Source: a virus
Strand: one strand, 5' to 3'
IMG/VR virus record: IMGVR_UViG_3300045988_157753
Length of the DNA stretch: 35,343 nt
This document shows, one piece after another, positions 5,890-32,055 of this stretch (position 1 is the stretch's first letter; every line of letters starts with the position of its first letter). The notes below the pieces were generated by a model, which worked only from the letters and a program-made list of their open reading frames with translations, ran no database searches and had not been told where the DNA came from. Made by a program: the position numbers and the translations under genes.

Positions 5890-7968
5890 TCAGAAGTTGT
5901 TGATGGCCACAACGGAATCTACGGTTCCGCTGCCGCCGGTTTTTGTCGCACCGCCAGACCCATCAAAGGAGAAGGCGCAGTACCAGTCGTTGGATGCGCA
6001 CTGGAAGCTCCCGGACTGCCCCACAGGAATAAAGCAGCTGGCCTTGTTGCTGCTCCCTCCGGTGCAGTAGACCGCATAGCCGATGACCTCCGACTCCGGG
6101 AATGTGATAACCTTGCCACCCTGCTTATAGCTGCCTGCGTCCACGGAGCCACCCACCGAGAGATCCTTGGAGATGTCTCCGTACTGCGCACCGATGGTGT
6201 TGGCGGACGCCCGGCCGAAGCCCACGGAGAAAACGACGTTCTCCGTGTCTGCTCCCGTCTGGTTGTTGTGGTACACACGGTAGATCTTCAGCAGATTGTT
6301 GCCGTCGGCAGGATCAATGCGCAAGCGCCACCGCGTGGTAAAGTTCACCGTCCGCGTTCCGTTGATGATCTGCTGGATCTGCACAGTGTCGGTGATACTG
6401 ATGGTGCCGTCACCGTTGACGTCCAGCTTCTCATAGTCGGCCAGCGTCGGCGTGACGGCCTTAATGTTGATCTGGTTGATCCGGTCCAGATCCGCCTGCG
6501 AGTAGTCAGAATTCTTGTAGGTCGCGCCGGTGGCGCTGGTGTCGATAGTCCCGCCGTCCAGATTGATCAGGAAATTGCCCTGCTCGCTGGCGATGGTGCC
6601 GGCAATCAGATGCGCGGCCGTGATCATCCACGCCTGAATGCCGCCGGCGATGGTAGCGCCCATTGTATAGGGGCCGTTGTAGCCGGTGCTGCTGGCCGCC
6701 CAGCCTTCGTAGTTAAATCGCCACACCTTATTGGCCTTGGTGGGATCCGGGTCGTCGGCAATGTACAGCTCATCCGGCTCGCCATCGCCGTTCGTGTCGA
6801 GCAGACGGACAGAACCGCCATTCGCCCCCAGAAGCGCGCCCGCCAGGCTGGAGGAGATCTGCTCCACCAGGGAGACAGACGGCTTGGCGTCGATCTCCTT
6901 CTGCTGCCCGGCGATGGTGGCCGCGATGTTGGCCTTGACGCTGCCGAGCGCTACGCTGTCATACCGCTCCAGCAGGCAGTCCCAGACGATCCGATTCACT
7001 CGCGCCTTGGCATCCACGCCCAGCCGCTGGAAGTAGACGCCCACGGTGTCGCCCAGATAAATCTGCTCCAGGAAGGCGACGTCCTCATAGCCGGAGGCCT
7101 GCGACAGCAGCGCCAGCTTCACGTCCCAGCTCACCGCCGGGACGCCGATCTGGTTCCGTTCAATGCAGGCGGCAGCCTCCGCCTGCAGCTGAGCCTGCGT
7201 GGGCTGCTGTTTGAAACTGGAAGACAGATCCAGCGGCATAAGCCGCGTGTACCCAAAGTCACCCTCTGCGTACACAGGCGCGGCCGTAACAGTAACATCG
7301 TTGCTCCGCCAGTATGGCACCACACCCGTGTAGCAGCTGGCGCAGTTGGCGTCCTGCGTCAGATCTGTCAGATTCTTCCCGTACCGGACCGATACACCGC
7401 GGTCCGCGCCTCTGCGGGTCAGCAGCTGCACCGCCCAGCCGTCAAACTCGTACTCGCCGCCGTACACATCCAGCAGGCTACCCTGCTGGCCGCCAAGCAG
7501 GCTCCACGCGCTGGTGGGGACCGTCGCGGACATGGTGGCCACGGTGGTCTTGTCGGTCGTCAGCGCAAAGGGAAAATCTGTCGGCAGCGCGTGGCTTTTG
7601 ATGGCCGCCACGGCGGAAGGTGCATCCGCCGCCGTAAACGGCGATACCACATAGCCGCCGAGATCATAGGCGATATGCCGGGCGTAGACGGCAGCTGTGC
7701 CGCTCATGCCCGGCACGATGCGGTACACCCGAAAGGGCTGCAGGCCGCCGCCAGGGCCTACTGTGGCCCGCAGAATGGAGCGCAGCGCGATCTCGCTATA
7801 GTGGATGCCCGCCACAGGGTAGTGCAGCTCCAGCTCGTACTGGCCGTTCAGCTCCTGCGTCACCTTGCAGGAAAGGGCATCCGCCAAGATGCCCATGCCG
7901 TTGTCCGCACCCGCTGGGAAGTTGGTGCGGTCGGCGTCATACAAAATCGGTCTCACAGTGTCCACCAC
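5890..7968 (-). CDS. Tail-associated protein Tal (prophage tail endopeptidase-type N-terminus) with dockerin-like Ca-binding loops
   Basis: Position after Dit; N-terminus ILYDADRTN...QELNGQYELELHYP typical of siphovirus Tal; GTG start region (7968/7965/7956 ambiguous). Confidence 0.75.
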   Translation of the reverse strand: MVDTVRPILYDADRTNFPAGADNGMGILADALSCKVTQELNGQYELELHYPVAGIHYSEIALRSILRATVGPGGGLQPFRVYRIVPGMSGTAAVYARHIAYDLGGYVVSPFTAADAPSAVAAIKSHALPTDFPFALTTDKTTVATMSATVPTSAWSLLGGQQGSLLDVYGGEYEFDGWAVQLLTRRGADRGVSVRYGKNLTDLTQDANCASCYTGVVPYWRSNDVTVTAAPVYAEGDFGYTRLMPLDLSSSFKQQPTQAQLQAEAAACIERNQIGVPAVSWDVKLALLSQASGYEDVAFLEQIYLGDTVGVYFQRLGVDAKARVNRIVWDCLLERYDSVALGSVKANIAATIAGQQKEIDAKPSVSLVEQISSSLAGALLGANGGSVRLLDTNGDGEPDELYIADDPDPTKANKVWRFNYEGWAASSTGYNGPYTMGATIAGGIQAWMITAAHLIAGTIASEQGNFLINLDGGTIDTSATGATYKNSDYSQADLDRINQINIKAVTPTLADYEKLDVNGDGTISITDTVQIQQIINGTRTVNFTTRWRLRIDPADGNNLLKIYRVYHNNQTGADTENVVFSVGFGRASANTIGAQYGDISKDLSVGGSVDAGSYKQGGKVITFPESEVIGYAVYCTGGSSNKASCFIPVGQSGSFQCASNDWYCAFSFDGSGGATKTGGSGTVDSVVAINNF

Positions 7969-8660
7969 CTCGGAATGATCTCCACGCTCGTGATGCCGCC
8001 CGTCCAGCGGACGACGCTCTCTCCGGCCGGCAGCGTGGGAAACTCCGGTGCGGAGATGGTGCTGTTGAGGTTAAATGCCCCGTAGTAGGCGTTCTGCGTG
8101 CCCGAATCGAGCACGACCACGCCGCGGGGCATGCTGTTGATGGTGACGGTCACACCGCCCACCGTCAGGGTGCCGGCCCCCGTGCCGGTGACGGTGATCG
8201 TCGGCAGAGCCGTGAACGCGGTGGGGTTTCGCAAAACTTCCCCCTGCGCGGCCTGCACCGGCACATCTCCGATACGGAGGAACCTCTGCGGCTGGCAGTT
8301 AAACTCAATCGTCGCGCGGCCAAACCGGTGCATGACGCTCTCCACGTCCAGCGGGCCGGCAAAATAGGCTTTGCGGTAGGTCTCTACGTCGTAGCTGTCC
8401 TCCAGCTTCTGGTACCCACGCGGGCCGCAGAGCCAGTCAGCCACCGCGCGCATAGCGCGGGGGAGCCGCATCCGCTCCGCGCTGATGTAGATGCTGTACG
8501 CCTGCACGTAATTCTGGTAGGCGTCCTGGAGAAACAGCAGGTCGCCGTTTCGCCCGGGGACGGCCTGTGTGTCCAGCTTTCGCGCAGAAAGCTCCACATC
8601 CGGATAGCGCTCAACGACAACGTGGACGTCATCAGACGATACTCCCGCCCAGAAGATCAT
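7953..8660 (-). CDS. Distal tail protein (Dit)
   Basis: 235 aa directly after the tape measure (ATGA overlap), before Tal. Confidence 0.75.
   Translation of the reverse strand: MIFWAGVSSDDVHVVVERYPDVELSARKLDTQAVPGRNGDLLFLQDAYQNYVQAYSIYISAERMRLPRAMRAVADWLCGPRGYQKLEDSYDVETYRKAYFAGPLDVESVMHRFGRATIEFNCQPQRFLRIGDVPVQAAQGEVLRNPTAFTALPTITVTGTGAGTLTVGGVTVTINSMPRGVVVLDSGTQNAYYGAFNLNSTISAPEFPTLPAGESVVRWTGGITSVEIIPRWWTL
8098..8114. repeat. Copy A of dispersed 17-bp palindrome (GTGCCCGAATCGAGCAC)
   Basis: One mismatch from the perfect copy at 33384-33400; lies inside dit. Confidence 0.8.
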
Positions 8661-16865: not shown

Positions 16866-18551
16866 CTATAGCCGGATCGCGCCGATGGGCGGCAGCTTCA
16901 CCGGCTCGCCGGTGCCAAGCACCGCCTCCTCGGTCATAGATGCCGCCAGAGCCATGAACGGGTCCGTTTTCCGGCTCTTCGGTTCGATCTTGGCGTAGTA
17001 AAAATTTCCTGTATTTGTACCGGCACGTTGGCCGCTGCGCACTCTCTTGGTGTTGTTCACTCCCCAGCGCAGGGGTGGGTTGTCACCCCATGTGAACAGG
17101 TCGCGGTCAAAGCATTCCTGAATTACCGGGTCGACTTGCATAATGTCGCTGGGTCGAACCAACTTCACGCGGTTCTTGTCCCTGGCGTCAAAGCCGATGC
17201 GCCGCATGGCGTCGCTCACCAGCGTCCAGCGGAAGTGGTCCATTGCCAGCTTGACGATGTTGTACTTTAAGCCCATCTCCTTCAGGTAGTCCGCCAGGAG
17301 GTTGGGGTCAATACTCACATCGTCCACCACCGTCAGCTTTCCCATCTCCGCCCAAGCTCGCCACGGGGCGACGATGCGGGAGAGCGACCGGCTCTGCAGG
17401 CAGACCCACGAATGGTTGATGTCAAAGCGCTGCGCTCCGATGCGGAAGTGCAGATTGACGCTCGCCCAGTCGTTGATCTCCGCGTAGTCGAGGCCGGCCA
17501 CGCAGGACTTCCCGCGGAGATTCGGCAGCGGCCGGTTGGTCGCCTTGACCTTGGCATAGTCCGTTACGCTGATCTCCAGCTGGCCGGCGCGGATGCCCAT
17601 CCGCTTCGTCAGAAAGTCTCCGTTCTGTTCTGGGTTGACCAGCCAGTCCGCGTATTCCTCTTCGATCTCCTGACGCAGGTGCGGGACATAGGGCAGCGAC
17701 GGGTTCGCCATGAACCAGTTCTCCGGATCGTTGACCTGCTCCCGATTTTCAAGACAGCAGATGAACGGAAGATAGCCGCCCTCCGGCTCCGCTTCGTTCT
17801 CGAAGAGGATCCGCCGCCCCTGGGCTATGAAGTCGTCCAGCGGGCCATCAGACACGTCGCCGTTGGATGTGAACATCCCGATGCGCGGCTGTCCGACCTT
17901 ACCCAGACCGGTGACGAAAACCTTGTAGTTGTTGTAGTTCTCAAAGGCGTGGACTTCGTTAAATACAACTTTTCCGGAGCGCATACCGTCTCGCCCCTTT
18001 GGGTTGTTGGTGCGCCCCTTCATCACGCCCTTGTTCTTCCGGCCCTGCACCATCTCTTTGGTGTGGTAATAGTGCCGGTTGAGCTTCGACTCCCACTTGG
18101 GGGATTCGAGGACTTCGGAAAGATCCTTCACCGGCGTGACCGCCTGCTCCTCGTTGTTGGCGCACACGTCCACGTTGTAGTTCTTCACGGGATTGTAAGG
18201 GGAGATGGAGCACGCGCCATCAAAGGCGATGAAGCCGTCCTTTCCTGCGCCGCGCCCCACCATGCAGAGCAGCTTCTTCCACCGCGGCCGCCCGTCGGCG
18301 CGGTAGGTGCAGTCCCACAGCGCGAGGAGGAACTCCTCCCAAGGGAACAGCCGTTCATAGGGGAAATAGCGCAGCAGGCTCAGGTACCGGCGCAGCTGCT
18401 CTGTGTCCACATAAATGTCCTCCGTGTCGAACACGCGGCGGATCATCGCCACCAGCGCGTGCTGCTCTGGACAGGCGCGTGGATTATTGGACTCGACGAT
18501 CTCGATATAGCGCAGAACTTCCCCGGGGATCTCACAGCTCATCGTCATCAT
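16866..18551 (-). CDS. terL: Terminase large subunit
   Basis: 561 aa, Walker A-like VGRGAGKDGF; position before the portal; start among ATG 18551/18548/18542. Confidence 0.9.
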   Translation of the reverse strand: MMTMSCEIPGEVLRYIEIVESNNPRACPEQHALVAMIRRVFDTEDIYVDTEQLRRYLSLLRYFPYERLFPWEEFLLALWDCTYRADGRPRWKKLLCMVGRGAGKDGFIAFDGACSISPYNPVKNYNVDVCANNEEQAVTPVKDLSEVLESPKWESKLNRHYYHTKEMVQGRKNKGVMKGRTNNPKGRDGMRSGKVVFNEVHAFENYNNYKVFVTGLGKVGQPRIGMFTSNGDVSDGPLDDFIAQGRRILFENEAEPEGGYLPFICCLENREQVNDPENWFMANPSLPYVPHLRQEIEEEYADWLVNPEQNGDFLTKRMGIRAGQLEISVTDYAKVKATNRPLPNLRGKSCVAGLDYAEINDWASVNLHFRIGAQRFDINHSWVCLQSRSLSRIVAPWRAWAEMGKLTVVDDVSIDPNLLADYLKEMGLKYNIVKLAMDHFRWTLVSDAMRRIGFDARDKNRVKLVRPSDIMQVDPVIQECFDRDLFTWGDNPPLRWGVNNTKRVRSGQRAGTNTGNFYYAKIEPKSRKTDPFMALAASMTEEAVLGTGEPVKLPPIGAIRL

Positions 18552-19146
18552 CGCCCCGGGCGGCAGCCGCCAGAGCGTCCTCCTTAAAGCCCAGCGTGGT
18601 GAAGATCGCCAGCATCTGGCGGGAGACCTGGATCTCCAGCGACACGCTGCGGTTTTCCATCAGCCGTCCCCGGTCATCCGTGACGGTCAGCCCGCGCCGG
18701 GCGATGTCGTCCCGCAGCTCCTGCCGCCTCACCCAGAAGTCCATATATTCCTGCACCTTATCCCGGTACACATCACCGTCGAGATCCCTTTCAACCAGGT
18801 TTTGCAGCATCGACTGCCGGAGTTCCTTATAGGCGTCCGTCAGGCGGTAGTTCTTCCTCTTCTGCGGCGGCGCGTCATGGCACGCCCGCTGCGCCTCCAG
18901 ATGCCGCGCCATGGACACGTTCTTCTTCGCTGCGGCGACCTGCTCGCCGCGCAGAACAATGCGCCCCATCATAGCCAGCCGGTCAAACGCGCTCCGGAAG
19001 CCCTCGCCGTAGGTGTCCAAGCACCAAGCATTCAGAGCCGCCTCGTCGCAGCCAAACCAGCCACACAGCTCCTCCACGGAGCACTGCATACTGCACAAGC
19101 TCTCAAATTGCTTTCGGTCAAATTCACGCTGCCCGGTCACTACCAT
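18532..19146 (-). CDS. terS: Terminase small subunit (P27-like)
   Basis: Start ATG 19146 preceded by GTGAGGTG; 204 aa directly upstream of and overlapping terL; acidic C-terminal tail DDDDEL. Confidence 0.75.
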   Translation of the reverse strand: MVVTGQREFDRKQFESLCSMQCSVEELCGWFGCDEAALNAWCLDTYGEGFRSAFDRLAMMGRIVLRGEQVAAAKKNVSMARHLEAQRACHDAPPQKRKNYRLTDAYKELRQSMLQNLVERDLDGDVYRDKVQEYMDFWVRRQELRDDIARRGLTVTDDRGRLMENRSVSLEIQVSRQMLAIFTTLGFKEDALAAAARGDDDDEL

Positions 19147-19150
19147 CACC

Positions 19151-20485
19151 TCACTTAAACGGTTTGCCCCACAACTTTTCAACTTTTGCATACGTCCGTA
19201 AATACCTGCTGGGGAGCGTTTCCGGACTGAATCGCCCGAATAGGGTATCCACATCGAAGTAGCGCTCCAACGTGGCGACCCGGACTGCCGTTGACGCAGA
19301 CCAGAACTTACGAGACCGCGAAACTTTCATAATCGCGTCCGTGTCCGCAGATGACCCACGATGACAGATAGCCGACAGAATGACCGTGGGAAGAGATTCC
19401 GTTCCCATGCTTTCTACTGCCCAAAGGTTACGCCCTTGATAGATCAGGTTACCTTTAAGCCCAGCTCCAAGAACGCGCCCGATCTCTCCACGATAATTGC
19501 GGTAGCTCATAGGCTCACACGCCATGGGCGTGGCAGGCATAGCGCGGAACGGGGTACAGTGCAGAACGATAGACCAAGGCCTGTCTATTAATGCAGAATC
19601 CCTATCCGCTTGACCGATAACATCAACAATCTCATACCAGTCCGCCTCTGTCTCCGTCGGATACCCCACGATGCTGTATAGCTTAACCTGGTGCGGCTTG
19701 CCTTGATAGCGAAGCATTGCTCCCAAGAAGTCCAGCAGCACAGCCTTGGTAATTGGCTTATTGACCATCCGCCTAAGGCGCTCGCTCATTCCGTCAATAG
19801 AGGTCGTTCGTAGGCGCGAAAAATTTACTTCAGCAAGATTCTTGTGTAAGTCCAGCAACGCGCGTTCCTTCTCTGCAATCCCGCCAAACAGAGAATCCTG
19901 CATGTAGTAAAAGTTATCAGGGGAAACGAAGCGACGCTGCCAGGTGTAACCACAGAACATGCACCTATGATTGCAACCGATAGGTCCTTCACGGAAGTCG
20001 CGGGTCTCGCTTAGTGAAATCTTGTGAGGATACGGGCTGGAAGCCTGAGCAATCTTGTAAATACGATCCGGCGAGAATGTTTTACTGCACGCCACGCTCT
20101 CGTGCTCCCATCCTCCATCTCGCTCAATCCCGCGAACCAGCGGCACGATCAGATTCTCGCCACGACCAAAAATGAAGAAGTCGCCAAACGGCAGGAACGG
20201 CGCAATGTGGAGCAGACCCGCGCCGCCGATGACTACCTTGTAATTTCCCGGCTGCCACTTTGTTCGCTCCGAAATAAAGCTCCACCAATCGCAATCACTG
20301 GTTAAAGACACAAGCACCACATCGTAATTGTGAACCGTAGCCGCGCCCGCATACTCAACCTCATACCCGGCACGCTCCAGACAGTCCACAATGACACGAA
20401 GTCCGGCAAACTGACGCGTCTCCATGCACTCGTTCTTATAGTTGACTTTGGCATAAGCTTCTTGGACATAAGCACATATCTTCAT
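19151..20485 (-). CDS. Radical SAM enzyme with N-terminal B12-binding-like (Rossmann) domain
   Basis: GCNHRCMFCGY = CxxxCxxC cluster motif about 180 aa in; N-terminal VVLVSLTS...KVVIGGAG flavodoxin-like segment; ATGA overlap with the upstream ParB-like gene; AT-richer than its flanks. Confidence 0.85.
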   Translation of the reverse strand: MKICAYVQEAYAKVNYKNECMETRQFAGLRVIVDCLERAGYEVEYAGAATVHNYDVVLVSLTSDCDWWSFISERTKWQPGNYKVVIGGAGLLHIAPFLPFGDFFIFGRGENLIVPLVRGIERDGGWEHESVACSKTFSPDRIYKIAQASSPYPHKISLSETRDFREGPIGCNHRCMFCGYTWQRRFVSPDNFYYMQDSLFGGIAEKERALLDLHKNLAEVNFSRLRTTSIDGMSERLRRMVNKPITKAVLLDFLGAMLRYQGKPHQVKLYSIVGYPTETEADWYEIVDVIGQADRDSALIDRPWSIVLHCTPFRAMPATPMACEPMSYRNYRGEIGRVLGAGLKGNLIYQGRNLWAVESMGTESLPTVILSAICHRGSSADTDAIMKVSRSRKFWSASTAVRVATLERYFDVDTLFGRFSPETLPSRYLRTYAKVEKLWGKPFK

Positions 20486-20946
20486 GCGTCCACCTCAAAG
20501 GCAAAGCCGCACTTAGGACAGTGCAGCAGCTGACGGTTGCCGCCATCGGTTGGTTCGTCATCATCCAGATCAAGCGGAGATTTATCCGGCAAACCCCACT
20601 CGAAATCAAACGCCGACAGATCCAGCTCCGGCAGCTCGGCGGCCAGCAGGTCGAGATCCCACGGACTCTCGTTGGTCTTGTTGTCCACAAGACGAAGGGC
20701 ATTCACCTGCTCCGGCGTCAAATCATCGACGCAGACGCAGGGCACCTCAGCCATGCCCAGCTTCTCCGCCGCCAGGGCGCGGCAGTGACCAATGACGATC
20801 ACGCCGCCCCGGTCTACCACGACCGGCTGCACAAAGCCGAACTGGCGGATGCTCTCCGCCACGTTAGCCACCTGCGCGGCGTCATGCCTCTTGGCGTTGG
20901 CGCGATACGGCGTCAGCTCCACCAGCGGCCTGTTCTCGATTCGCAT
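20482..20946 (-). CDS. ParB N-terminal (ParB/Srx-fold) domain protein with C-terminal zinc ribbon
   Basis: LTPYRANAKRHD...SIRQFGFVQPVVV...VIVIGHCRALAAEKLG; C-terminal LLHCPKCGF; ATG 20946 preceded by GGGAGGTG. Confidence 0.8.
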   Translation of the reverse strand: MRIENRPLVELTPYRANAKRHDAAQVANVAESIRQFGFVQPVVVDRGGVIVIGHCRALAAEKLGMAEVPCVCVDDLTPEQVNALRLVDNKTNESPWDLDLLAAELPELDLSAFDFEWGLPDKSPLDLDDDEPTDGGNRQLLHCPKCGFAFEVDA

Positions 20947-20959
20947 AAAGTCACCTCCC

Positions 20960-20976
20960 GTGCCCGATTCGGACAC
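20960..20976. repeat. Copy C of dispersed 17-bp palindrome (plus strand GTGCCCGATTCGGACAC, exact reverse complement of copy E)
   Basis: Sits immediately 5' of the RBS of the ParB-like gene. Confidence 0.8.
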
Positions 20977-21287
20977 CGCGCCCGCCTCAGGCCAGCCAGC
21001 CTACGTCAATACCCCGCGCATCCAGCGCAGGCCTTCGGCTGACCAGCCTGAGACATTCTTCTGCGGCTTTGCGGGACGGGCGGACGAGCCGCCCGAACCG
21101 AGGAAAAAGGAGAAGAGTACTTCCGGGGCTGCCCGCCCCGCAAAACCGCAGTTTACTCTGGAATTGCCCGGCGATTCTCGCGCCCACGCGCAGCGCGGCG
21201 ACGCGCAGACGCGGAAATCGCTGGAATGTCCTGGACCCCCACGCGCAGCAACAAAGACGCGAGAGGCGTTTTTTCGAGGGGGGGGTG
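20977..21287. other. 310-nt non-coding tract between HNH and the packaging-proximal genes: candidate cos/packaging or late regulatory region
   Basis: No credible ORF; direct repeats CCCACGCGCAGC (21183-21194, 21238-21249) plus GACGCGCAG (21200-21208); GGGCGG/CCGCCC hairpin near 21078-21094; G8 run 21278-21285. Confidence 0.4.
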
Positions 21288-21635
21288 TCAATCCCACCGC
21301 TCCGGCGTCAGAGGCGGCGCAGACGGCGCGTATTGCCGCTGGCTATCCGGATGCAACTCCTCGTGACAACGCTTGCAGACGGCCTCCAGCTGCCGGGAAT
21401 CGCCATCGTAGACGGACAGCGCCAGGTCGGGACGATCGCGCAGATGCCTGACGTGATGGACGATACTGGCCTTGGAGTACACGCCGCGCCGCTTGCACTC
21501 CTGGCACTCGCAGTTATCAACCGCGAGCACCTCCCGGCGCAGCCGCCGCCACTCCGGCCAGGAGTAAAACTCATGCTCCGATCCGGCCTCGAGAAGCCCG
21601 CGCAGTTCCGCGAGCCTGCTTGCTGAAATTCCCAT
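21288..21635 (-). CDS. HNH endonuclease (packaging-associated type)
   Basis: CECQECKRRG...HHVRHL...CKRCHEELH; ATG 21635 preceded by GGAGGA. Confidence 0.85.
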   Translation of the reverse strand: MGISASRLAELRGLLEAGSEHEFYSWPEWRRLRREVLAVDNCECQECKRRGVYSKASIVHHVRHLRDRPDLALSVYDGDSRQLEAVCKRCHEELHPDSQRQYAPSAPPLTPERWD

Positions 21636-21736
21636 GCGTTCCTCCCGTCTTCGTCTCCGGCGTTCCGGCTCGCGGCTATCACCTCGCGGCAAAACAAAAA
21701 CGCCGGAGACCATGACGCAGCACCAACGTGTGGTGT

Positions 21737-21946
21737 CTAATCATGGGCTCCGGCGTTCAACGCTCCGGCCTCTTGCTCGATATGCAGGATGATCTCCGTT
21801 TTACAGTCCCGGCAGTACACAGGAAGCTCCGTGGCGGATGTGCCGGGCAGCACCCGCAGGAAGTGTCGATTGCGGTTGCACCTGGGACAGGTCAACCACC
21901 CATCGCTCCTTGGGGATATTGTACCGTATTCGGATGTGATACGCAA
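21737..21946 (-). CDS. Cysteine-rich KTR-type zinc-ribbon protein
   Basis: WLTCPRCNRNRHFLRVLPGTSATELPVYCRDCKTEIIL matches the CPxC..KTR-like..CxxC pattern; TTG start after AGGAGG. Confidence 0.65.
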   Translation of the reverse strand: MRITSEYGTISPRSDGWLTCPRCNRNRHFLRVLPGTSATELPVYCRDCKTEIILHIEQEAGALNAGAHD

Positions 21947-21976
21947 GGGGTTTTCCTCCTTTTCGTGATTTATTCA

Positions 21977-21985
21977 ACTATATCA
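21977..21985 (-). promoter_or_regulatory. Possible extended -10 promoter (TGaTATAGT) in the AT-rich gap before the KTR gene
   Basis: Minus strand reads cttgTGATATAGTtg; no good -35. Confidence 0.3.
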
Positions 21986-22002
21986 CAAGTTACATTTACT
22001 AT

Positions 22003-22791
22003 TTAGTACATACCAAGGCCGCCTTGATGCGGCATACGTTTCCCATCTATCACAGTCGGATGAAGAGGATCCTGCTCGATGTACCAGCCGTACTGGTAGT
22101 GGCCAAACCCGTTATCCACCGTATACCGGCCGCACACCCGGCAATCGTCCGGAATCTCAATGCGGCCCGAATCAGATCGGAAGTACTCAGGCGGCGGCAA
22201 CTGCCGCGCAAGACTGCGCGACGCCACCCACGTCCTGGCATCGATCGGAATGACAATGCCGTCGCTGCGCTCCTTGCAGTAGTATCTGGCAGTGCGCCGA
22301 TAGCTGTCAAATGCACCCAGCAGCAGGGGCTGCGACGAGATAATATACCCCTGTTTCCAGAGATCTTCCATAGTCATGGGCGGGAAGTCATTGTATCGCA
22401 CCGTAAGATGCATGTGATACCGATGATCCCCATGGCGCCCCTCGATAAGATAAACATAGTCAGGCGTCACACCATCATGCCACTTCTTCATCTGGTAAAG
22501 CAATCGGCGCCAACACAATCGGACCTCTGCGAAGCTGAGTGGCAGATGCGCCTCGTCAAAAGTCAGCGTGTAGCTCCATCCATCAAAGCCGAAAAGCGCC
22601 AGCAATAGCTCCAAGCGATCCATGCGCGTCCGGCAGACGCCGGAGTCCCGAGGCGGGCGGAGAATACGATTCTTCTCCGCCCGCTCGTAAGGGCTGTCAT
22701 ACTGGCTGAGTCGCGGACGTATGGCGCGCTGCTCCTTCACCAGCGGGCCGGCGCGCTGCCGCACGCAGATCCAGCGTCCTTCACCTTTCAT
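22003..22791 (-). CDS. HUH-superfamily rolling-circle Rep-like protein
   Basis: Motif 1-like SYTLTFD, motif 2 HGDHRYHMHLTV (H-U-H-U-U-U), motif 3-like TARYYCKE; start ATG 22791 (the ORF track's longer start is less likely). Confidence 0.55.
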   Translation of the reverse strand: MKGEGRWICVRQRAGPLVKEQRAIRPRLSQYDSPYERAEKNRILRPPRDSGVCRTRMDRLELLLALFGFDGWSYTLTFDEAHLPLSFAEVRLCWRRLLYQMKKWHDGVTPDYVYLIEGRHGDHRYHMHLTVRYNDFPPMTMEDLWKQGYIISSQPLLLGAFDSYRRTARYYCKERSDGIVIPIDARTWVASRSLARQLPPPEYFRSDSGRIEIPDDCRVCGRYTVDNGFGHYQYGWYIEQDPLHPTVIDGKRMPHQGGLGMY

Positions 22792-22996
22792 CACGTTTCT
22801 CCACATGAGTAGGGACTTCGGCAATAGCCGACGCGTGGGCGGACACCGCGGCGTTAACCGCCACATCCAGCGCCTCGCCGAAAGCATCCATCACGACCAC
22901 TGCCGTGGATATGGCTCCGTAGACCTTAGGCGAAACACGCGCAGCAGACTCATCCAGATACGCCCTCAAGACTCCTACCGACTCCATAATACTCAT
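22781..22996 (-). CDS. Hypothetical early protein
   Basis: 71 aa, ATG in TGATG junction with the upstream gene. Confidence 0.55.
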   Translation of the reverse strand: MSIMESVGVLRAYLDESAARVSPKVYGAISTAVVVMDAFGEALDVAVNAAVSAHASAIAEVPTHVEKRDER

Positions 22997-25017: not shown

Positions 25018-25313
25018 GCTGCCGCCCCCTCAGAGCGTCTCAAGCGCTCCGTCATAGCTGCCGCCGCATCGCCTTCCAGGAAGAAAGAATACCCCGCGTT
25101 CTTGTCCAGATTCACATCCCACACAGGAGAATCCTCTCGGGCCAGCACATCCAGCATAACTCCCTTGCAGCCCTTCGCTATCGCAGGGCCGGCGCGGTGG
25201 TACAGCTGCGTATACAGCCCGTAAACCATCGCACAGATTTCAGCGGCAACCTCCATCCCACTTCCGGCAAACGTCATGGTTCTTACGCCCTTGTCAATCT
25301 TCACGTTAATCAT
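25014..25313 (-). CDS. Hypothetical early protein
   Basis: ATG 25313 lies 9 nt after AGGAGG (ATG 25322 abuts the RBS). Confidence 0.55.
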   Translation of the reverse strand: MINVKIDKGVRTMTFAGSGMEVAAEICAMVYGLYTQLYHRAGPAIAKGCKGVMLDVLAREDSPVWDVNLDKNAGYSFFLEGDAAAAMTERLRRSEGAAA

Positions 25314-26808
25314 CGTTACCATCCTCCTTTTCCACTTCCGGCAGCGCCAGCCACCGGACGACACGCACCTCGATCTTGTCTTTGCCTTTCCCAAACCGGA
25401 ACGCTTCGCCGTCCCACCGGCAGAGCGTGCGGGACACTACCTTACCGTCCCCGCTCAAGTCGAACTCCGCCACCACGTCACACGGTTCTGCCGGCGTTGT
25501 GCCGCCGGGCATCCACGCGGCAAGTGAGGTTTGACCGGACACTGCGGCCGTGGAGTTGATCTCGTCCGTCAGACCCAGCAGATAGTCCACGGAGCAGTGC
25601 AGCGTCTTGGCGTTCTTCGCGACATCATCAGCTCGCCATGGCAAAATACCCCTGCTGTAGCATTTGACTGCGCTGTCGAGTGCCGTCCCATCACTAAGCG
25701 ACCTCAAGAGCCCAACGGTTAAACTGCCGCCATAGTCATAGTGCAGTTTTACCTCGTCGCCCAGCCCCGCGGCGTCTGCCGCCCGCACAACGCGCCGAGC
25801 TTCGCTCCGAACCCTGCGGACAGCTTCGCTCTGCGCTTTCATTTCAGCCGCAGCATCGGACGCTTTCTTTTTTTCCTTCGCCTTCTCGTATTTTTCCCGC
25901 GCCTTGCTGCACATCTCCGCACAAGCAGCTCCGCAGTAGCCTGACGGGTCGTGCGCTCCGCCAGCGCGGCACTTCAGGCAGCATTTCTCACCGCCGCAGG
26001 CTTCCCAACTTTGCGCCTTGAGATCATGCCTGAAAAACTTGTCCATGTGTGTACAGGTCGACCCATCGGGGCACTTGAAAGAAACTGCAAGATATTCTCC
26101 GCGCTTAGCAGTATCGCGAATACGACCGGCGCTCGGTGTAGTCTTCGGGCAAACCCTCTTGATACGCCCCTGCACATACTCCGGGAGGCTGGACAGCGCG
26201 TCCGCCGTGTCCTCCGGCAGCGTCCCAGCCTCCCATGCGTCGCGGTAGCACGAGGCCAGCCCCTTCTGGATCTTCTCCAGCCGCGCCAGCTTGCTCTTGC
26301 TGATTTTACAAGCCTCCGCCACATGATCCCGCATCCGTCCGGGGAACTCATGCCCCTCCTCCTGCAGCTGATACAAAAGCTCACGTACCTTCTCAGCCTG
26401 CCGGGAGATCTCTGCCGAGGACAGGTCGCGGGTGCTGCTGTTGGCGTAGATCAGGCGCAGCTCCTGCAGCGCCGGGGACGCCTCGCCCCGTTCCCGGATG
26501 CAGGGCACATCCCGCAGATCCGTCCGCCCTTCCTCCACCAGCTTTCGGATGGCCGCCGTGCGCCGATGGCCGGAGACGATCACCACATGGCCGTTCTCGC
26601 CGTCACGTACCCGAATAGGCTGCTGCAGGCCGACGGTGGCGATATTGTCCGCCAGCGCATCCAGATCACTGAGCTGATAGAAGTTGTTCTGGTCTTTGTC
26701 CAGCAGATCCACGTCTATGTACTCGATCTGCTCTCGCCCGGTGTCCGGATTGGACACCGGCTGCGCCAGTGTCTTGAGGTAGTCGCCCATTTCAAACTTC
26801 TTCGCCAT
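25306..26808 (-). CDS. parB: Large ParB-family protein (ParB N-terminal domain + Cys-rich region + XRE-like HTH + DUF551-like tail)
   Basis: IEYIDVDLL...GLQQPIRVRD...VIVSGHRRTAAIRKL; later LHCSVDYLLGLTDE (HTH_3 ending); overlaps parA by 17 nt. Confidence 0.8.
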   Translation of the reverse strand: MAKKFEMGDYLKTLAQPVSNPDTGREQIEYIDVDLLDKDQNNFYQLSDLDALADNIATVGLQQPIRVRDGENGHVVIVSGHRRTAAIRKLVEEGRTDLRDVPCIRERGEASPALQELRLIYANSSTRDLSSAEISRQAEKVRELLYQLQEEGHEFPGRMRDHVAEACKISKSKLARLEKIQKGLASCYRDAWEAGTLPEDTADALSSLPEYVQGRIKRVCPKTTPSAGRIRDTAKRGEYLAVSFKCPDGSTCTHMDKFFRHDLKAQSWEACGGEKCCLKCRAGGAHDPSGYCGAACAEMCSKAREKYEKAKEKKKASDAAAEMKAQSEAVRRVRSEARRVVRAADAAGLGDEVKLHYDYGGSLTVGLLRSLSDGTALDSAVKCYSRGILPWRADDVAKNAKTLHCSVDYLLGLTDEINSTAAVSGQTSLAAWMPGGTTPAEPCDVVAEFDLSGDGKVVSRTLCRWDGEAFRFGKGKDKIEVRVVRWLALPEVEKEDGNDD

Positions 26809-27583
26809 CGTTCACGCCTCCTTCCCGCAGGTACTCCCACACCCACGCCCGATAGTCCAGCGACGCCGCGCTCCGCGGGCTGTAATCCATGACCGGCCGC
26901 CGCCGGAAGGTGCTCTCCGGCACCTTTTCCGTTCGGCGTATCACCGTGGTAAACACCGGTAAGCTCAGGCCCCGCAGCAGCGCCTCGCCCTGCCGCACCA
27001 CTTCGCTGTTGTGCCACTGGCAGATCAGGACACCCGCCACTCTGATGGCGGGGTTGGCAGACCTCATGCTGTTGATCTGCGCCGCCATGTCGCTGACGCC
27101 CCAGACGGAGAAGCCATCCACCACCATGGGGACGACCACCTCGTCCGCCGCCATCAGCGCCGCACAGCTCGCCGCCGTGAAGCCGGGAGGACAGTCAAAG
27201 ATCATGTAGTCCATGCCGTCGACCGCCGCCGCGTCACGGAAGTCCCGCAGGGAGCTGATGCTGTGGATGCTGCTTTTCAGCGCCCGCACATCCAGCCCGT
27301 ACAGGGCGCTGGATGCCGGCAGCAGCTGCACAAGGCCGCCGGCGTCCACGGGGATGGTGCTGTCGCTCCACACGGGCTCCGCCTCGCCCTCCAGCACATC
27401 CGCCACCGTGGCAGTGTTGTCCGGGTCGAGATCCGGGAAGTAGAACCGCGTCAGGCTCATCTGCCCGTCGCAGTCCACCAGAACCACCCGTCTGCCGGCC
27501 CGCCGCAGAGCGTCCGCCAGGTTGATGGCCGTGACGGTTTTCCCCACGCCGCCCTTCAAGTTCATGATCGCTATGGTTTTCAT
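26792..27583 (-). CDS. parA: ParA/Soj-family partition ATPase
   Basis: MKTIAIMNLKGGVGKTVTAINLA deviant Walker A; 263 aa. Confidence 0.9.
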   Translation of the reverse strand: MKTIAIMNLKGGVGKTVTAINLADALRRAGRRVVLVDCDGQMSLTRFYFPDLDPDNTATVADVLEGEAEPVWSDSTIPVDAGGLVQLLPASSALYGLDVRALKSSIHSISSLRDFRDAAAVDGMDYMIFDCPPGFTAASCAALMAADEVVVPMVVDGFSVWGVSDMAAQINSMRSANPAIRVAGVLICQWHNSEVVRQGEALLRGLSLPVFTTVIRRTEKVPESTFRRRPVMDYSPRSAASLDYRAWVWEYLREGGVNDGEEV

Positions 27584-31488: not shown

Positions 31489-31881
31489 ATGAAAAACGAC
31501 AGTCAGATCACCGCCTGCGACGCCAAGGTGCTGCGCTACTTCCGCAAGCATGGCCCCGCGCCAACCGCTGACGCTAAAAAGGCGCTTGCAGATGTCAGCT
31601 CAGTCGGACACCGCATCGTCGCGCTGGCTCATCCCGATGCCGCGCTTCTCTCCGAAGACGTGGACACCGATCTGTCGGCAACGCGGGCGCTCCATCAGGG
31701 CCTCGGCGTCTACCGCATCACGCCCAAGGGCGAGATTGCGCTGGACGACTACCTTGCGGAGCGAAAGCGGTACTGGAAGGAGCTTCTGCTGAAAAGCCTG
31801 TGGTTCCCTATCGCAGTATCGTTTGCAACTGCCTTACTAACAACACTGTTAACACTGATGTTAACAAGGCAGTTACGATAG
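31489..31881 (+). CDS. C-terminally membrane-anchored protein (lysogeny module, function unknown)
   Basis: ATG 31489 after GGGAAAGAC; 130 aa; soluble N-terminal domain, C-terminal TM WFPIAVSFATALLTTLLTLML. Confidence 0.65.
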   Translation: MKNDSQITACDAKVLRYFRKHGPAPTADAKKALADVSSVGHRIVALAHPDAALLSEDVDTDLSATRALHQGLGVYRITPKGEIALDDYLAERKRYWKELLLKSLWFPIAVSFATALLTTLLTLMLTRQLR

Positions 31882-31963
31882 AAAGCGCGATCTGGACGAC
31901 AAGGATCATCCACACGTCGCAGTCTTCCAGCTTCTCGACCAGCCAGTCCGAAAACCGTCGCAT
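31808..31963 (-). CDS. Unannotated 51-aa membrane peptide (MRRFSDWLVEKLEDCDVWMILVVQIALSIVTALLTSVLTVLLVRQLQTILR)
   Basis: ATG 31963 preceded by GAGGGAGGTGG plus 4 nt; own promoter 32004-32032; below the 60-aa cutoff of the ORF track; 3' 74 nt overlap the convergent 31489-31881 gene. Confidence 0.5.
   Translation of the reverse strand: MRRFSDWLVEKLEDCDVWMILVVQIALSIVTALLTSVLTVLLVRQLQTILR
31827..31874. repeat. 48-bp imperfect palindrome centred on GTTAAC (20 of 24 positions pair)
   Basis: AACTGCCTTACTAACAACACTGTTAAC / GTTAACACTGATGTTAACAAGGCAGTT; encodes TM helices in both convergent ORFs; possible bidirectional terminator/processing hairpin. Confidence 0.7.
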
Positions 31964-32003
31964 TTTTCCACCTCCCTCTCGTTCTCACCTGAGGGACAAG
32001 CCA

Positions 32004-32032
32004 ATCATAAATGAGAAATTTCTCATTGTCAA
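32004..32032 (-). promoter_or_regulatory. Near-consensus minus-strand promoter: -35 TTGACA, 17 nt, -10 TATGAT, operator in the spacer
   Basis: Minus strand reads TTGACAatgagaaatttctcattTATGAT (32032-32004). Confidence 0.7.
32010..32027. promoter_or_regulatory. 18-bp perfect palindrome AATGAGAAATTTCTCATT (operator candidate)
   Basis: Fills the spacer of promoter 32004-32032. Confidence 0.65.
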
Positions 32033-32037
32033 TACAA

Positions 32038-32055
32038 AATGCGAAATTTCTTATT
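32038..32055. promoter_or_regulatory. Degenerate second copy of the operator (AATGCGAAATTTCTTATT)
   Basis: Two differences from the 32010-32027 site; centres 28 bp apart. Confidence 0.5.

Follow-up and report, generated by a model that had tools for sequence, protein, structure and literature searches.

Organisation of the locus

The IMG/VR virus record IMGVR_UViG_3300045988_157753 (35,343 nucleotides (nt); this whole stretch is called the window below) is the almost complete, ~35-kb genome of a temperate siphovirus, which carries most of its genes on the minus strand. We analysed a two-gene cassette lying directly ahead of its packaging genes, in which a short protein with a ParB N-terminal domain is followed by a 444-aa radical S-adenosylmethionine (SAM) enzyme with a B12-binding-type N-domain (19151-20485, minus strand). 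In the direction of transcription, the locus was observed to encode a REP_ORF2/G2P-like replication protein (22003-22887), a Cys-rich KTR protein (21737-21946), an HNH endonuclease (21288-21713, minus strand; Pfam HNH and phrog_119), a GC-rich spacer of 310 nt, the ParB N-domain protein, the radical SAM enzyme, the terminase genes terS (18532-19146, minus strand; Terminase_4 and phrog_5110) and terL (16866-18551, minus strand; TerL_ATPase and TerL_nuclease), and the portal protein.

The open reading frame (ORF) of the ParB-domain protein spans 20482-20976 on the minus strand, and its likely start is the ATG at 20946, with GGGAGGTGA just before it. The 154-aa product begins with a ParB/Srx-fold N-domain (residues 1 to ~121; 20585-20946), assigned from Pfam, from AlphaFold2 (AF2) and Foldseek, and from identity with sister phages. 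The rest of the gene (20482-20584) encodes an acidic flexible linker (…PLDLDDDEPTDGG…) and a C-terminal beta-hairpin with a C-P-K-C-G knuckle (residues 143-147; codons at 20506-20520), followed by the stop codon. This segment is the first part, and the radical SAM gene the second part, of the exchanged module described below. The stop codon of the first gene overlaps the start codon of the second in an ATGA at 20482-20485, which couples their translation. The CxxxCxxC [4Fe-4S]/SAM cluster motif of the enzyme (C171/C175/C178), located by family alignment, is encoded at 19952-19975. All of these features lie on the minus strand.

The longest terS ORF (18532-19254, minus strand) runs 104 nt into the 3' end of the radical SAM gene. 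In relatives, however, TerS is 165-205 aa long, and the junction reads TGA GGTG ATG, where GAGGTG is the Shine-Dalgarno sequence of a terS start at ATG 19146. The true start is therefore probably this ATG, 4 nt past the radical SAM stop codon, and not position 19254. terS in turn overlaps terL. Since an ATGA overlap, a 4-nt gap and the terS/terL overlap connect them, the ParB-domain, radical SAM, terS and terL genes form one tightly coupled late operon.

The radical SAM gene differs from its neighbours in base composition, with a GC content of 0.523 and a GC content at third codon positions (GC3) of 0.58, against a GC3 of 0.73-0.89 in the flanks. The corresponding values are 0.619 and 0.755 for the ParB-domain gene, 0.62 and 0.80 for terS, and 0.60 and 0.81 for terL. 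By this measure the gene is compositionally foreign.

The ParB-domain protein and its C-terminal tail

The 154-aa protein matches Pfam PF02195 (ParB_N) above the cut-off (E 4.2e-7; 30.3 bits against 26.3) and phrog_620 at 2.3e-43, and Foldseek matched its AF2 model to CTP-bound ParB (7bnr, 1.5e-7), Noc and sulfiredoxin (6ky4, 9.8e-6). The model is confident for the N-domain at residues 1-91. Beyond it, residues 97-107 are predicted to form a helix, from which a strongly acidic, disordered linker leads to a beta-hairpin (138-142/149-153) with C-P-K-C-G at its turn. The residues for binding nucleoside triphosphates (NTPs), namely the GHxR P-motif and the NPR and DNK boxes, are kept across the partners of the radical SAM family; in the alignment of these partners G63 and N27 are invariant, H64 and R66 are nearly invariant, and N99 of the DNK box is conserved. 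The protein scores 29.2 bits with TIGR00180, short of the 58.45 bits set for a canonical partition ParB. It ends after the N-domain, linker and hairpin, with neither a helix-turn-helix nor a canonical dimerisation domain, and Pfam finds no methyltransferase domain fused to it. The nearest relatives of its N-domain are ParB-methyltransferase fusions (phrog_498, 3.5e-36; PADLOC MTase_II, 2e-25, over the ParB part).

A reading of the window made earlier from its letters alone (the sequence-only reading) had described the C-terminus as a CPKC zinc ribbon. Each chain carries a single CxxC knuckle, its conserved cysteines being C143 and C146 (C153 and C156 when numbered from the GTG at 20976). No second knuckle was found in the protein, and Pfam Zn_ribbon_4 scored 0.093. 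With one knuckle only, at the predicted turn of a beta-hairpin, the C-terminus is not a complete, four-Cys zinc ribbon.

This tail is strongly conserved. The partner proteins end in C-P-K-C-G-(F/H/Y)-x-(F/W/Y), 3-7 residues from the C-terminus, and the acidic linker before it holds a conserved phi-D-L-D-D/E motif ~20 residues ahead of the knuckle. The knuckle is invariant across 35 partners which are only 23-54% identical overall. At the amino acid level it is invariant in 73 pairs (K in 72 and R in one), and every synonymous codon is used; selection must therefore act on the peptide. The same full synonymous variation led us to reject, for the CPKCG knuckle, conservation as a ribosome-binding site of the radical SAM gene or as a recombination joint. 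The final Glu-Val codons of the tail (GAG-GTR) double as the Shine-Dalgarno sequence of the radical SAM gene, and their conservation is confounded for this reason. We also observed that the ParB ORF of L059 and L066 (4502-5542) has no stop after CPKCGFEF and continues for ~180 further codons over the radical SAM gene in another frame; either the two genes genuinely overlap here or the sequence may contain an error.

The radical SAM protein

The three cysteines of the CNHRCMFC motif (C171/C175/C178) are shared by all of 55 diverse homologues, the most distant of which are 25% identical. The alignment of these 55 sequences revealed no family-wide conserved Cys, and no conserved Cys/His pair, outside CxxxCxxC; C4, C20, C65 and C323 are conserved in the close clade only. 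Because CxxxCxxC holds the only family-wide conserved cysteines, auxiliary clusters of the MiaB and SPASM types are excluded. An auxiliary Fe-S cluster or metal site shared by the tail and the enzyme was likewise rejected, there being no conserved Cys/His pair to provide it.

For the Rossmann N-domain, the family profile matches the cobalamin-dependent methylase MgmA (9ccb) with an E value of 3.6e-8. The alignment places residues 29-181 on the cobalamin domain and cluster motif of MgmA, with DVVLVS, VGGAG, FGRxE and GCxxxCxFC aligned. S60 and G87-G88, which are conserved in the family alignment, have the spacing of the SxL…GG motif. The AF2 model (mean predicted local distance difference test score 79.5) matched MgmA (best, 7.6e-9), MiaB, AprD4 and OxsB in Foldseek, and these matches to solved enzymes support a partial TIM-barrel radical SAM core.

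On its own, the window protein remains below the Pfam PF04055 gathering threshold (23.5 bits against 29.5), and many of its homologues have a precomputed PF04055 match. Its Pfam B12-binding match (1e-3) is under the cut-off, as are those to TIGR03960 (31 bits against 462.3) and TIGR04013 (18.6 against 251), which are the best matches for 43 and 38 of the 55 members, all far under the cut-offs. Neither Pfam nor NCBIfam gave a TRAM, SPASM/twitch or RRE match, no PHROG was assigned, a single-sequence search of the PDB returned no match, and PADLOC gave no meaningful defence-system match, only PDC-M51A at 7e-4. With all Pfam and NCBIfam scores under their cut-offs, the enzyme is placed by profile searches outside every curated family.

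These results bear out most of the gene anatomy proposed at the outset: a stand-alone ParB N-terminal domain at 20482-20946 whose TGA overlaps the ATG of a 444-aa protein, a Rossmann/B12-like N-terminus with a radical SAM motif in that protein, a gene AT-richer than the flanking packaging genes, and a location between HNH and terS.

Distribution of the family and linkage to the tail

In order to describe the family we used ~180 loci from IMG/VR, metagenome assemblies and GTDB genomes. An exhaustive search gave the radical SAM family 565 representatives at 50% clustering (115 at E<=1e-30), which are full-length down to ~27% identity and are without exception unnamed proteins. The cultured-phage collection held no member and one weak 72-residue match, and the plasmid collection gave no match. 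The sole close predicted viral structure is an "Fe-S oxidoreductase" of an uncultured gut siphovirus. Hosts, assigned by metagenomic binning, are mostly Clostridia (Oscillibacter, Onthomonas and Anaeromicropila), and distant members were binned to Planctomycetota, Dissulfurispiraceae, Hydrogenedentota and others.

Clustering of the neighbouring genes placed a ParB-like ORF at position -1 in 69 of 77 loci, and no other neighbour was conserved. An ORF ending in C-P/G-K/R-C-G precedes ~77 of the 79 distinct viral radical SAM genes with usable upstream DNA, and was found at the same place in 13/13 genome-derived loci. In total, a CPKCG-type ORF lies upstream of the enzyme gene in ~90 of the 92 distinct members, whose identity goes down to ~30%, and chance adjacency was rejected on these independent loci. 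The junction is most often a 4-nt overlap (-4), and in most loci it is either this overlap or a gap of +1 or +2. The sequence-only reading had suggested looking for the pair beside terS in other phages, and the pair is conserved at ~90 distinct loci with several terminase types. The downstream terminases belong to at least three unrelated lineages (TerL PF03354/PF20441, GpA-type and Terminase_3), and there are two portal families. The two genes are a mobile cassette whose insertion position is conserved, not a trait of one phage lineage.

The loci without a complete pair show which part accompanies the enzyme. In one clade (L020, L022, L054, L060 and L187) the ParB domain is absent, the cassette lies between a terS-terL fusion and the portal gene, and a mini-ORF of 71-72 aa, consisting of linker and tail only, overlaps the radical SAM start. 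The ~35-aa linker-tail unit of the window protein recurs in the stand-alone mini-ORF of L020 and L022. A DNA-pattern search for the tail in 2.9 million viral contigs gave 43 stretches, 31 of which have a radical SAM gene directly after them. Tailed ParB proteins without the enzyme were found directly before terS in L096 and L107; in L086 a recent deletion has left a radical SAM stub behind; and the L089 clade, which has no radical SAM gene, carries two tailed ParB proteins ahead of a C5 methylase. As judged from these gene arrangements, the constant companion of the enzyme is the tail and not the ParB fold. The dependence is also asymmetric, in that the enzyme needs the tail and a tailed ParB does not need the enzyme, as is typical of an adaptor and its client enzyme. 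The two proteins are complementary in charge, with a median isoelectric point of 8.5 for the enzymes and 4.7 for the partners, whose linker has a net charge of -7.

The knuckle occurs in a variant form in L089, where the second of the two short ParB_N proteins (6597-7061) has the C-terminus …YECPCCGLKFN* and is encoded directly before the C5 cytosine methylase (7170-8219). A tethered CPxCG knuckle may be a more general adaptor for DNA-modifying enzymes.

Exchange with a methyltransferase domain in sister phages

Many homologues of the window ParB-domain protein are 93-97% identical to it over the first ~120 residues and then continue with N6/N4-methyltransferase motifs instead of the tail. Two sister phages (L197 and L199) have a gene order identical to that of the window, which enabled us to delimit the exchange at the nucleotide level. 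Window positions 21149-20585 share 95.6% nt identity with L199, no similarity to the sister phages is seen across 20584-19132, and similarity restarts at terS (19131), at ~85% through the capsid gene. The unmatched block comprises residues ~122-154 of the ParB-domain protein, that is its linker and tail, together with the entire radical SAM gene, and its counterpart in L197 and L199 is an N6_N4_Mtase domain. The drop in GC3 is explained by the swapped block, which coincides with it. The sequence-only reading had supposed that the ordinary methyltransferase is replaced here by a radical SAM partner, and the exchange over 20584-19132 shows this directly. On these alignments, linker-tail and enzyme move as one block at the exact place of the N6/N4 methyltransferase domain, and the tail belongs to the radical SAM module and not to the ParB N-domain.

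The ParB-N6/N4 methyltransferase of the sister phages (L197:6001-7222, L199:174-1360) is itself consistently divided between two overlapping ORFs (197+221 aa, or 223/233+162/173 aa), as the reading frame shifts within the methyltransferase downstream of the DPPY motif. Since clusters with the 197-aa product contain as many as 95 sequences, an isolated assembly error is not the cause. The gene could be a pseudogene, or the frame could change by slippage, by phase variation or by programmed frameshifting.

A proposed role in DNA modification

Taking together the gene anatomy, the fold assignments, the family-wide linkage of enzyme and tail, the module swap and the position before the terminases, we infer by analogy, and with about even confidence, that the ParB-coupled radical SAM enzyme modifies phage DNA before packaging, like the ParB-methyltransferase fusions and the ParB-dependent thymidine dioxygenases. 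The ParB N-domain would serve as a constant platform for alternative DNA-directed effectors, the methyltransferase being mounted covalently and the radical SAM enzyme through a tethered knuckle peptide. The tail would be the obligatory docking or activating element of the enzyme in a 1:1 complex, which the N-domain would couple to phage DNA as it does for the fused methyltransferases and the dioxygenases. The enzyme would then alter the DNA by radical chemistry, probably by transferring a methyl group with the help of cobalamin, late in infection and just ahead of packaging, and the modification would protect the DNA from host restriction. The B12-type domain suggests that the acceptor would be an unactivated carbon.

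There are precedents for parts of this scheme. A phage post-replicative DNA dioxygenase needs a ParB-like activator on double-stranded DNA (dsDNA), the two genes co-occur with terminases, and the activator consists of a nucleotide-binding domain and a C-terminal domain, both of which are required, with no DNA-binding domain (PMC13229309). Radical SAM enzymes take part in phage thymidine hypermodification (PMC5889632, PMC8989533). A stoichiometric complex on DNA late in infection would fit the 1:1 translational coupling, the opposite charges of the two proteins and the dioxygenase precedent. The two-protein DNA-modification or anti-restriction module put forward in the sequence-only reading is supported in part, by the module swap and by the conservation of the pair; DNA as its substrate is proposed by analogy.

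Several observations weigh against this proposal. Among the closest solved structures are enzymes that modify protein (MgmA and RimO) or RNA (MiaB), and none of these structures is of a DNA-modifying enzyme. Cobalamin binding is suggested solely by homology, and AprD4 and MiaB share the B12-type domain without using cobalamin. The mini-ORF clade has no ParB domain nearby, so the enzyme cannot depend on ParB for reaching DNA; and since the tail is kept in that clade, where a mere tether would be dispensable, it must do more than tether. An invariant C-terminal peptide encoded directly upstream of a radical SAM gene is, moreover, also the signature of a peptide maturase.

This last point leads to the main rival. 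The sequence-only reading had overlooked the key coupling element, the invariant CPKCG tail, which opens up the serious alternative that the tail is the substrate and the enzyme a protein or peptide maturase. Its Pro, Lys, Cys or aromatic residues would be methylated or cross-linked, the phi-DLDD motif would act as a leader-like recognition element, and the product would be a modified ParB or, in the mini-ORF phages, a free modified peptide. The invariant peptide with its acidic motif ~20 residues ahead of the knuckle, the retention of this peptide as a 72-aa mini-ORF after loss of the ParB domain, an invariance of Pro and Lys which exceeds the need of a simple metal knuckle, and the protein-modifying activity of the best structural and sequence neighbours, MgmA and RimO, are all in keeping with it. 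However, the enzyme has one conserved cluster motif only, with no SPASM or auxiliary-cluster cysteines and no RRE-like domain, and 1:1 translational coupling is more typical of the subunits of a complex than of an enzyme and its substrate. Tailed ParB proteins also persist without the enzyme in several phages, indicating that the unmodified tail has its own function, and the fact that a DNA methyltransferase domain can take the place of the block behind one and the same ParB N-domain is easier to understand if the enzyme is an alternative DNA-directed effector. We therefore consider a maturase improbable, though it is the alternative to be taken most seriously.

The pair might instead act on nucleotides, with the ParB/Srx domain binding an NTP (CTP, ATP or GTP) which the enzyme converts in a viperin-like or pool-modifying reaction, either to supply a modified precursor or to disturb nucleotide signalling in the host. 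NTP binding is a general property of the ParB fold (PMC12704722), the GHxR, NPR and DNK residues are kept, and the model matches CTP-bound ParB. Yet the ParB domain is dispensable in the mini-ORF clade, the enzyme has no similarity to the viperin or QueE families, no polymerase, kinase or transferase genes accompany it in a conserved manner, and the swap partner is a post-replicative DNA methyltransferase. This makes a role in nucleotide conversion very unlikely.

Equally, the enzyme might be an auxiliary function modifying host RNA or a host or virion protein in the manner of MiaB/RimO, with the tailed protein as an electron-transfer or stabilising subunit and with no role in DNA modification. 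Weak profile similarity to MiaB/RimO and MtaB points in this direction, as do MiaB-RNA complexes among the Foldseek matches. The CPxCG knuckle is rubredoxin-like, and reduction of radical SAM clusters by small proteins with a Cys knuckle has a precedent in Dph3, which serves Dph1-Dph2 in this way. But the enzyme has neither the N-terminal three-Cys auxiliary cluster nor a TRAM domain, its family matches are far under the cut-offs, the cassette lies strictly before the terminase genes, and a DNA methyltransferase domain replaces the block in sister phages; we give this explanation little credence. Least probable is that the tailed ParB is a packaging accessory for cos/pac recognition or clamping, with the knuckles of two protomers sharing one metal like the Rad50 zinc hook and the enzyme as a passenger which regulates or matures it: tailed ParB proteins lie directly before terS without the enzyme (L096 and L107), each chain has a single knuckle and the upstream spacer holds an inverted repeat, but related phages manage packaging with a ParB-methyltransferase at this locus, or without any ParB there, and the retention of the tail by the enzyme without the ParB domain is left unexplained.

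If DNA modification by the ParB-coupled enzyme is taken as the starting point, a bolder version can be formulated, which we put forward only tentatively and regard as rather doubtful. This would be the first radical SAM enzyme with a cobalamin-type domain to act on dsDNA, a ParB-fold NTP switch would activate and deliver it through a 10-residue CPKCG metal-knuckle peptide, and it would install a mark beyond the reach of SN2 methyltransferases, such as methylation of an unactivated base or sugar carbon. Phages of strict anaerobes, with hosts ranging from gut Clostridia to Planctomycetota, would carry this mark widely.

Repeats and other features of the window

The spacer between the HNH and ParB-domain genes contains a 21-nt inverted repeat (21061-21081/21131-21151, no strand) with 90% complementary arms and a 49-nt spacer. 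The sequence-only reading had placed one copy (C) of a dispersed palindrome 5' of the pair; this could not be reproduced, and the 21-nt repeat has no other copy in the window. The 21061-21151 region is a candidate cos or terminase-recognition, packaging or regulatory site. The same spacer has short direct repeats, CCCACGCGCAGC occurring twice and CGCG(C/G)C(C/G)ACGCGCAG in tandem at 21179-21208. A scan of 18400-22100 for promoters and terminators returned nothing over the shuffled expectation, and the two terminator-like matches fall within the ParB coding sequence.

Another motif, AACGCCGGAGMC, is clustered at 21653-21757, ~700 nt off. Three copies of AACGCCGGAG(A/C)C in alternating orientation lie at 21646-21757, in the region where the KTR gene ends and the HNH gene begins, and make two overlapping hairpins with arms of 17-19 nt that are 89-94% complementary; the motif has 4 matches in the window against 0.66 expected.

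Apart from the cassette, genes for a ParA of 263 aa and for a ParB-like protein of 500 aa lie at 25306-27583 (minus strand); the relatives L001, L004, L005 and L197 have both too, which suggests plasmid-like maintenance beside a tyrosine integrase (34122-35282, plus strand). An RNase_T-type exonuclease fused to a BRCT domain is encoded at 31800-33038 (plus strand). The 5' end of this gene, in the AT-richest part of the window (GC 0.47), has an imperfect palindrome of 46 nt (31805-31896; 72% complementary, with abutting arms) and another inverted repeat, of 19 nt (32009-32056). Relatives of the phage differ in the DNA-modification genes found at equivalent positions of the early region, with a weak Mom-like match in L004 (3120-3560) and a stand-alone N6_N4 methyltransferase in L001-L003 (L001:2149-2835). 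This phage lineage stacks several modification functions.

Significance and comparison with known systems

Full-text literature searches on radical SAM together with ParB, terminase, prophage, anti-restriction or hypermodification returned no description of the present pairing, in agreement with the sequence-only reading, which had recognised no described phage system. Radical SAM is never mentioned in a 2025 survey of the ParB-CTPase fold (PMC12704722), in a 2026 paper on ParB-dependent dioxygenases (PMC13229309) or in a 2017 analysis of polyvalent proteins. ParB-coupled DNA-modification modules of phages are known; the enzyme family and the mode of coupling are new. That ParB folds partner the DNA-modifying enzymes of phages is a recent insight, gained from fused methyltransferases and, in 2026, from activator-dependent thymidine dioxygenases, and the cassette adds a third, chemically very different client enzyme together with a tethered invariant knuckle peptide which moves with the enzyme. 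Should DNA prove to be the substrate, this chemistry would have no precedent, and a DNA-directed class B enzyme would be new to radical SAM enzymology. The family is large and phage-specific, has no name in any library searched and no member among cultured phages, and could therefore hide a new DNA modification in the viromes of anaerobes and of the gut, with a bearing on restriction evasion and on the sequencing and modification calling of virome DNA. The natural swap of methyltransferase and linker-tail plus radical SAM enzyme on a near-identical backbone offers ready constructs and controls.

The closest known systems are the ParB_N-N6/N4 methyltransferase fusions (PF02195+PF01555; phrog_498; PADLOC MTase_II). 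They share with the cassette the N-domain, at 93-97% aa identity in the sister phages, the locus between HNH and terS, and the late-operon position. In place of their methyltransferase domain, however, the cassette has the acidic linker, the CPKCG tail and a separate enzyme, and judging from the genes its chemistry would be radical rather than SN2 methyl transfer and its coupling non-covalent. In the ParB-dependent thymidine dioxygenases (5mYOX176/ParB176; PNAS 2026, PMC13229309), a stand-alone ParB without a DNA-binding domain likewise adjoins a modifying enzyme, and both systems are frequently found beside terminases. 5mYOX176 is an Fe(II)/2-oxoglutarate dioxygenase and not a radical SAM enzyme, ParB176 has a helical dimerisation domain where the cassette has the CPKCG knuckle, and function has been demonstrated for that pair, whereas for the cassette it is proposed.

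Class B methylases such as MgmA (PDB 9ccb) have a B12-type Rossmann N-domain followed by a CxxxCxxC barrel, as does the enzyme described here. Unlike MgmA and the uncharacterised TIGR03960 and TIGR04013 B12-radical SAM families, the present family is phage-specific and has an obligatory peptide partner. The MiaB/RimO methylthiotransferases have in common with it a flavodoxin-like N-domain and a radical SAM core, with local similarity at GxSE and IVGYPGET, but possess a three-Cys N-terminal auxiliary cluster and a TRAM domain, both absent from the cassette enzyme. The peptide maturase systems of mycofactocin (MftA/MftC) and PQQ (PqqA/PqqE) likewise consist of a small upstream gene, whose product has an invariant extreme C-terminus, followed by a radical SAM gene. 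The cassette differs from them in having neither SPASM nor an RRE or chaperone, in that its peptide is normally the tail of a ParB fold, and in its location within a phage packaging operon.

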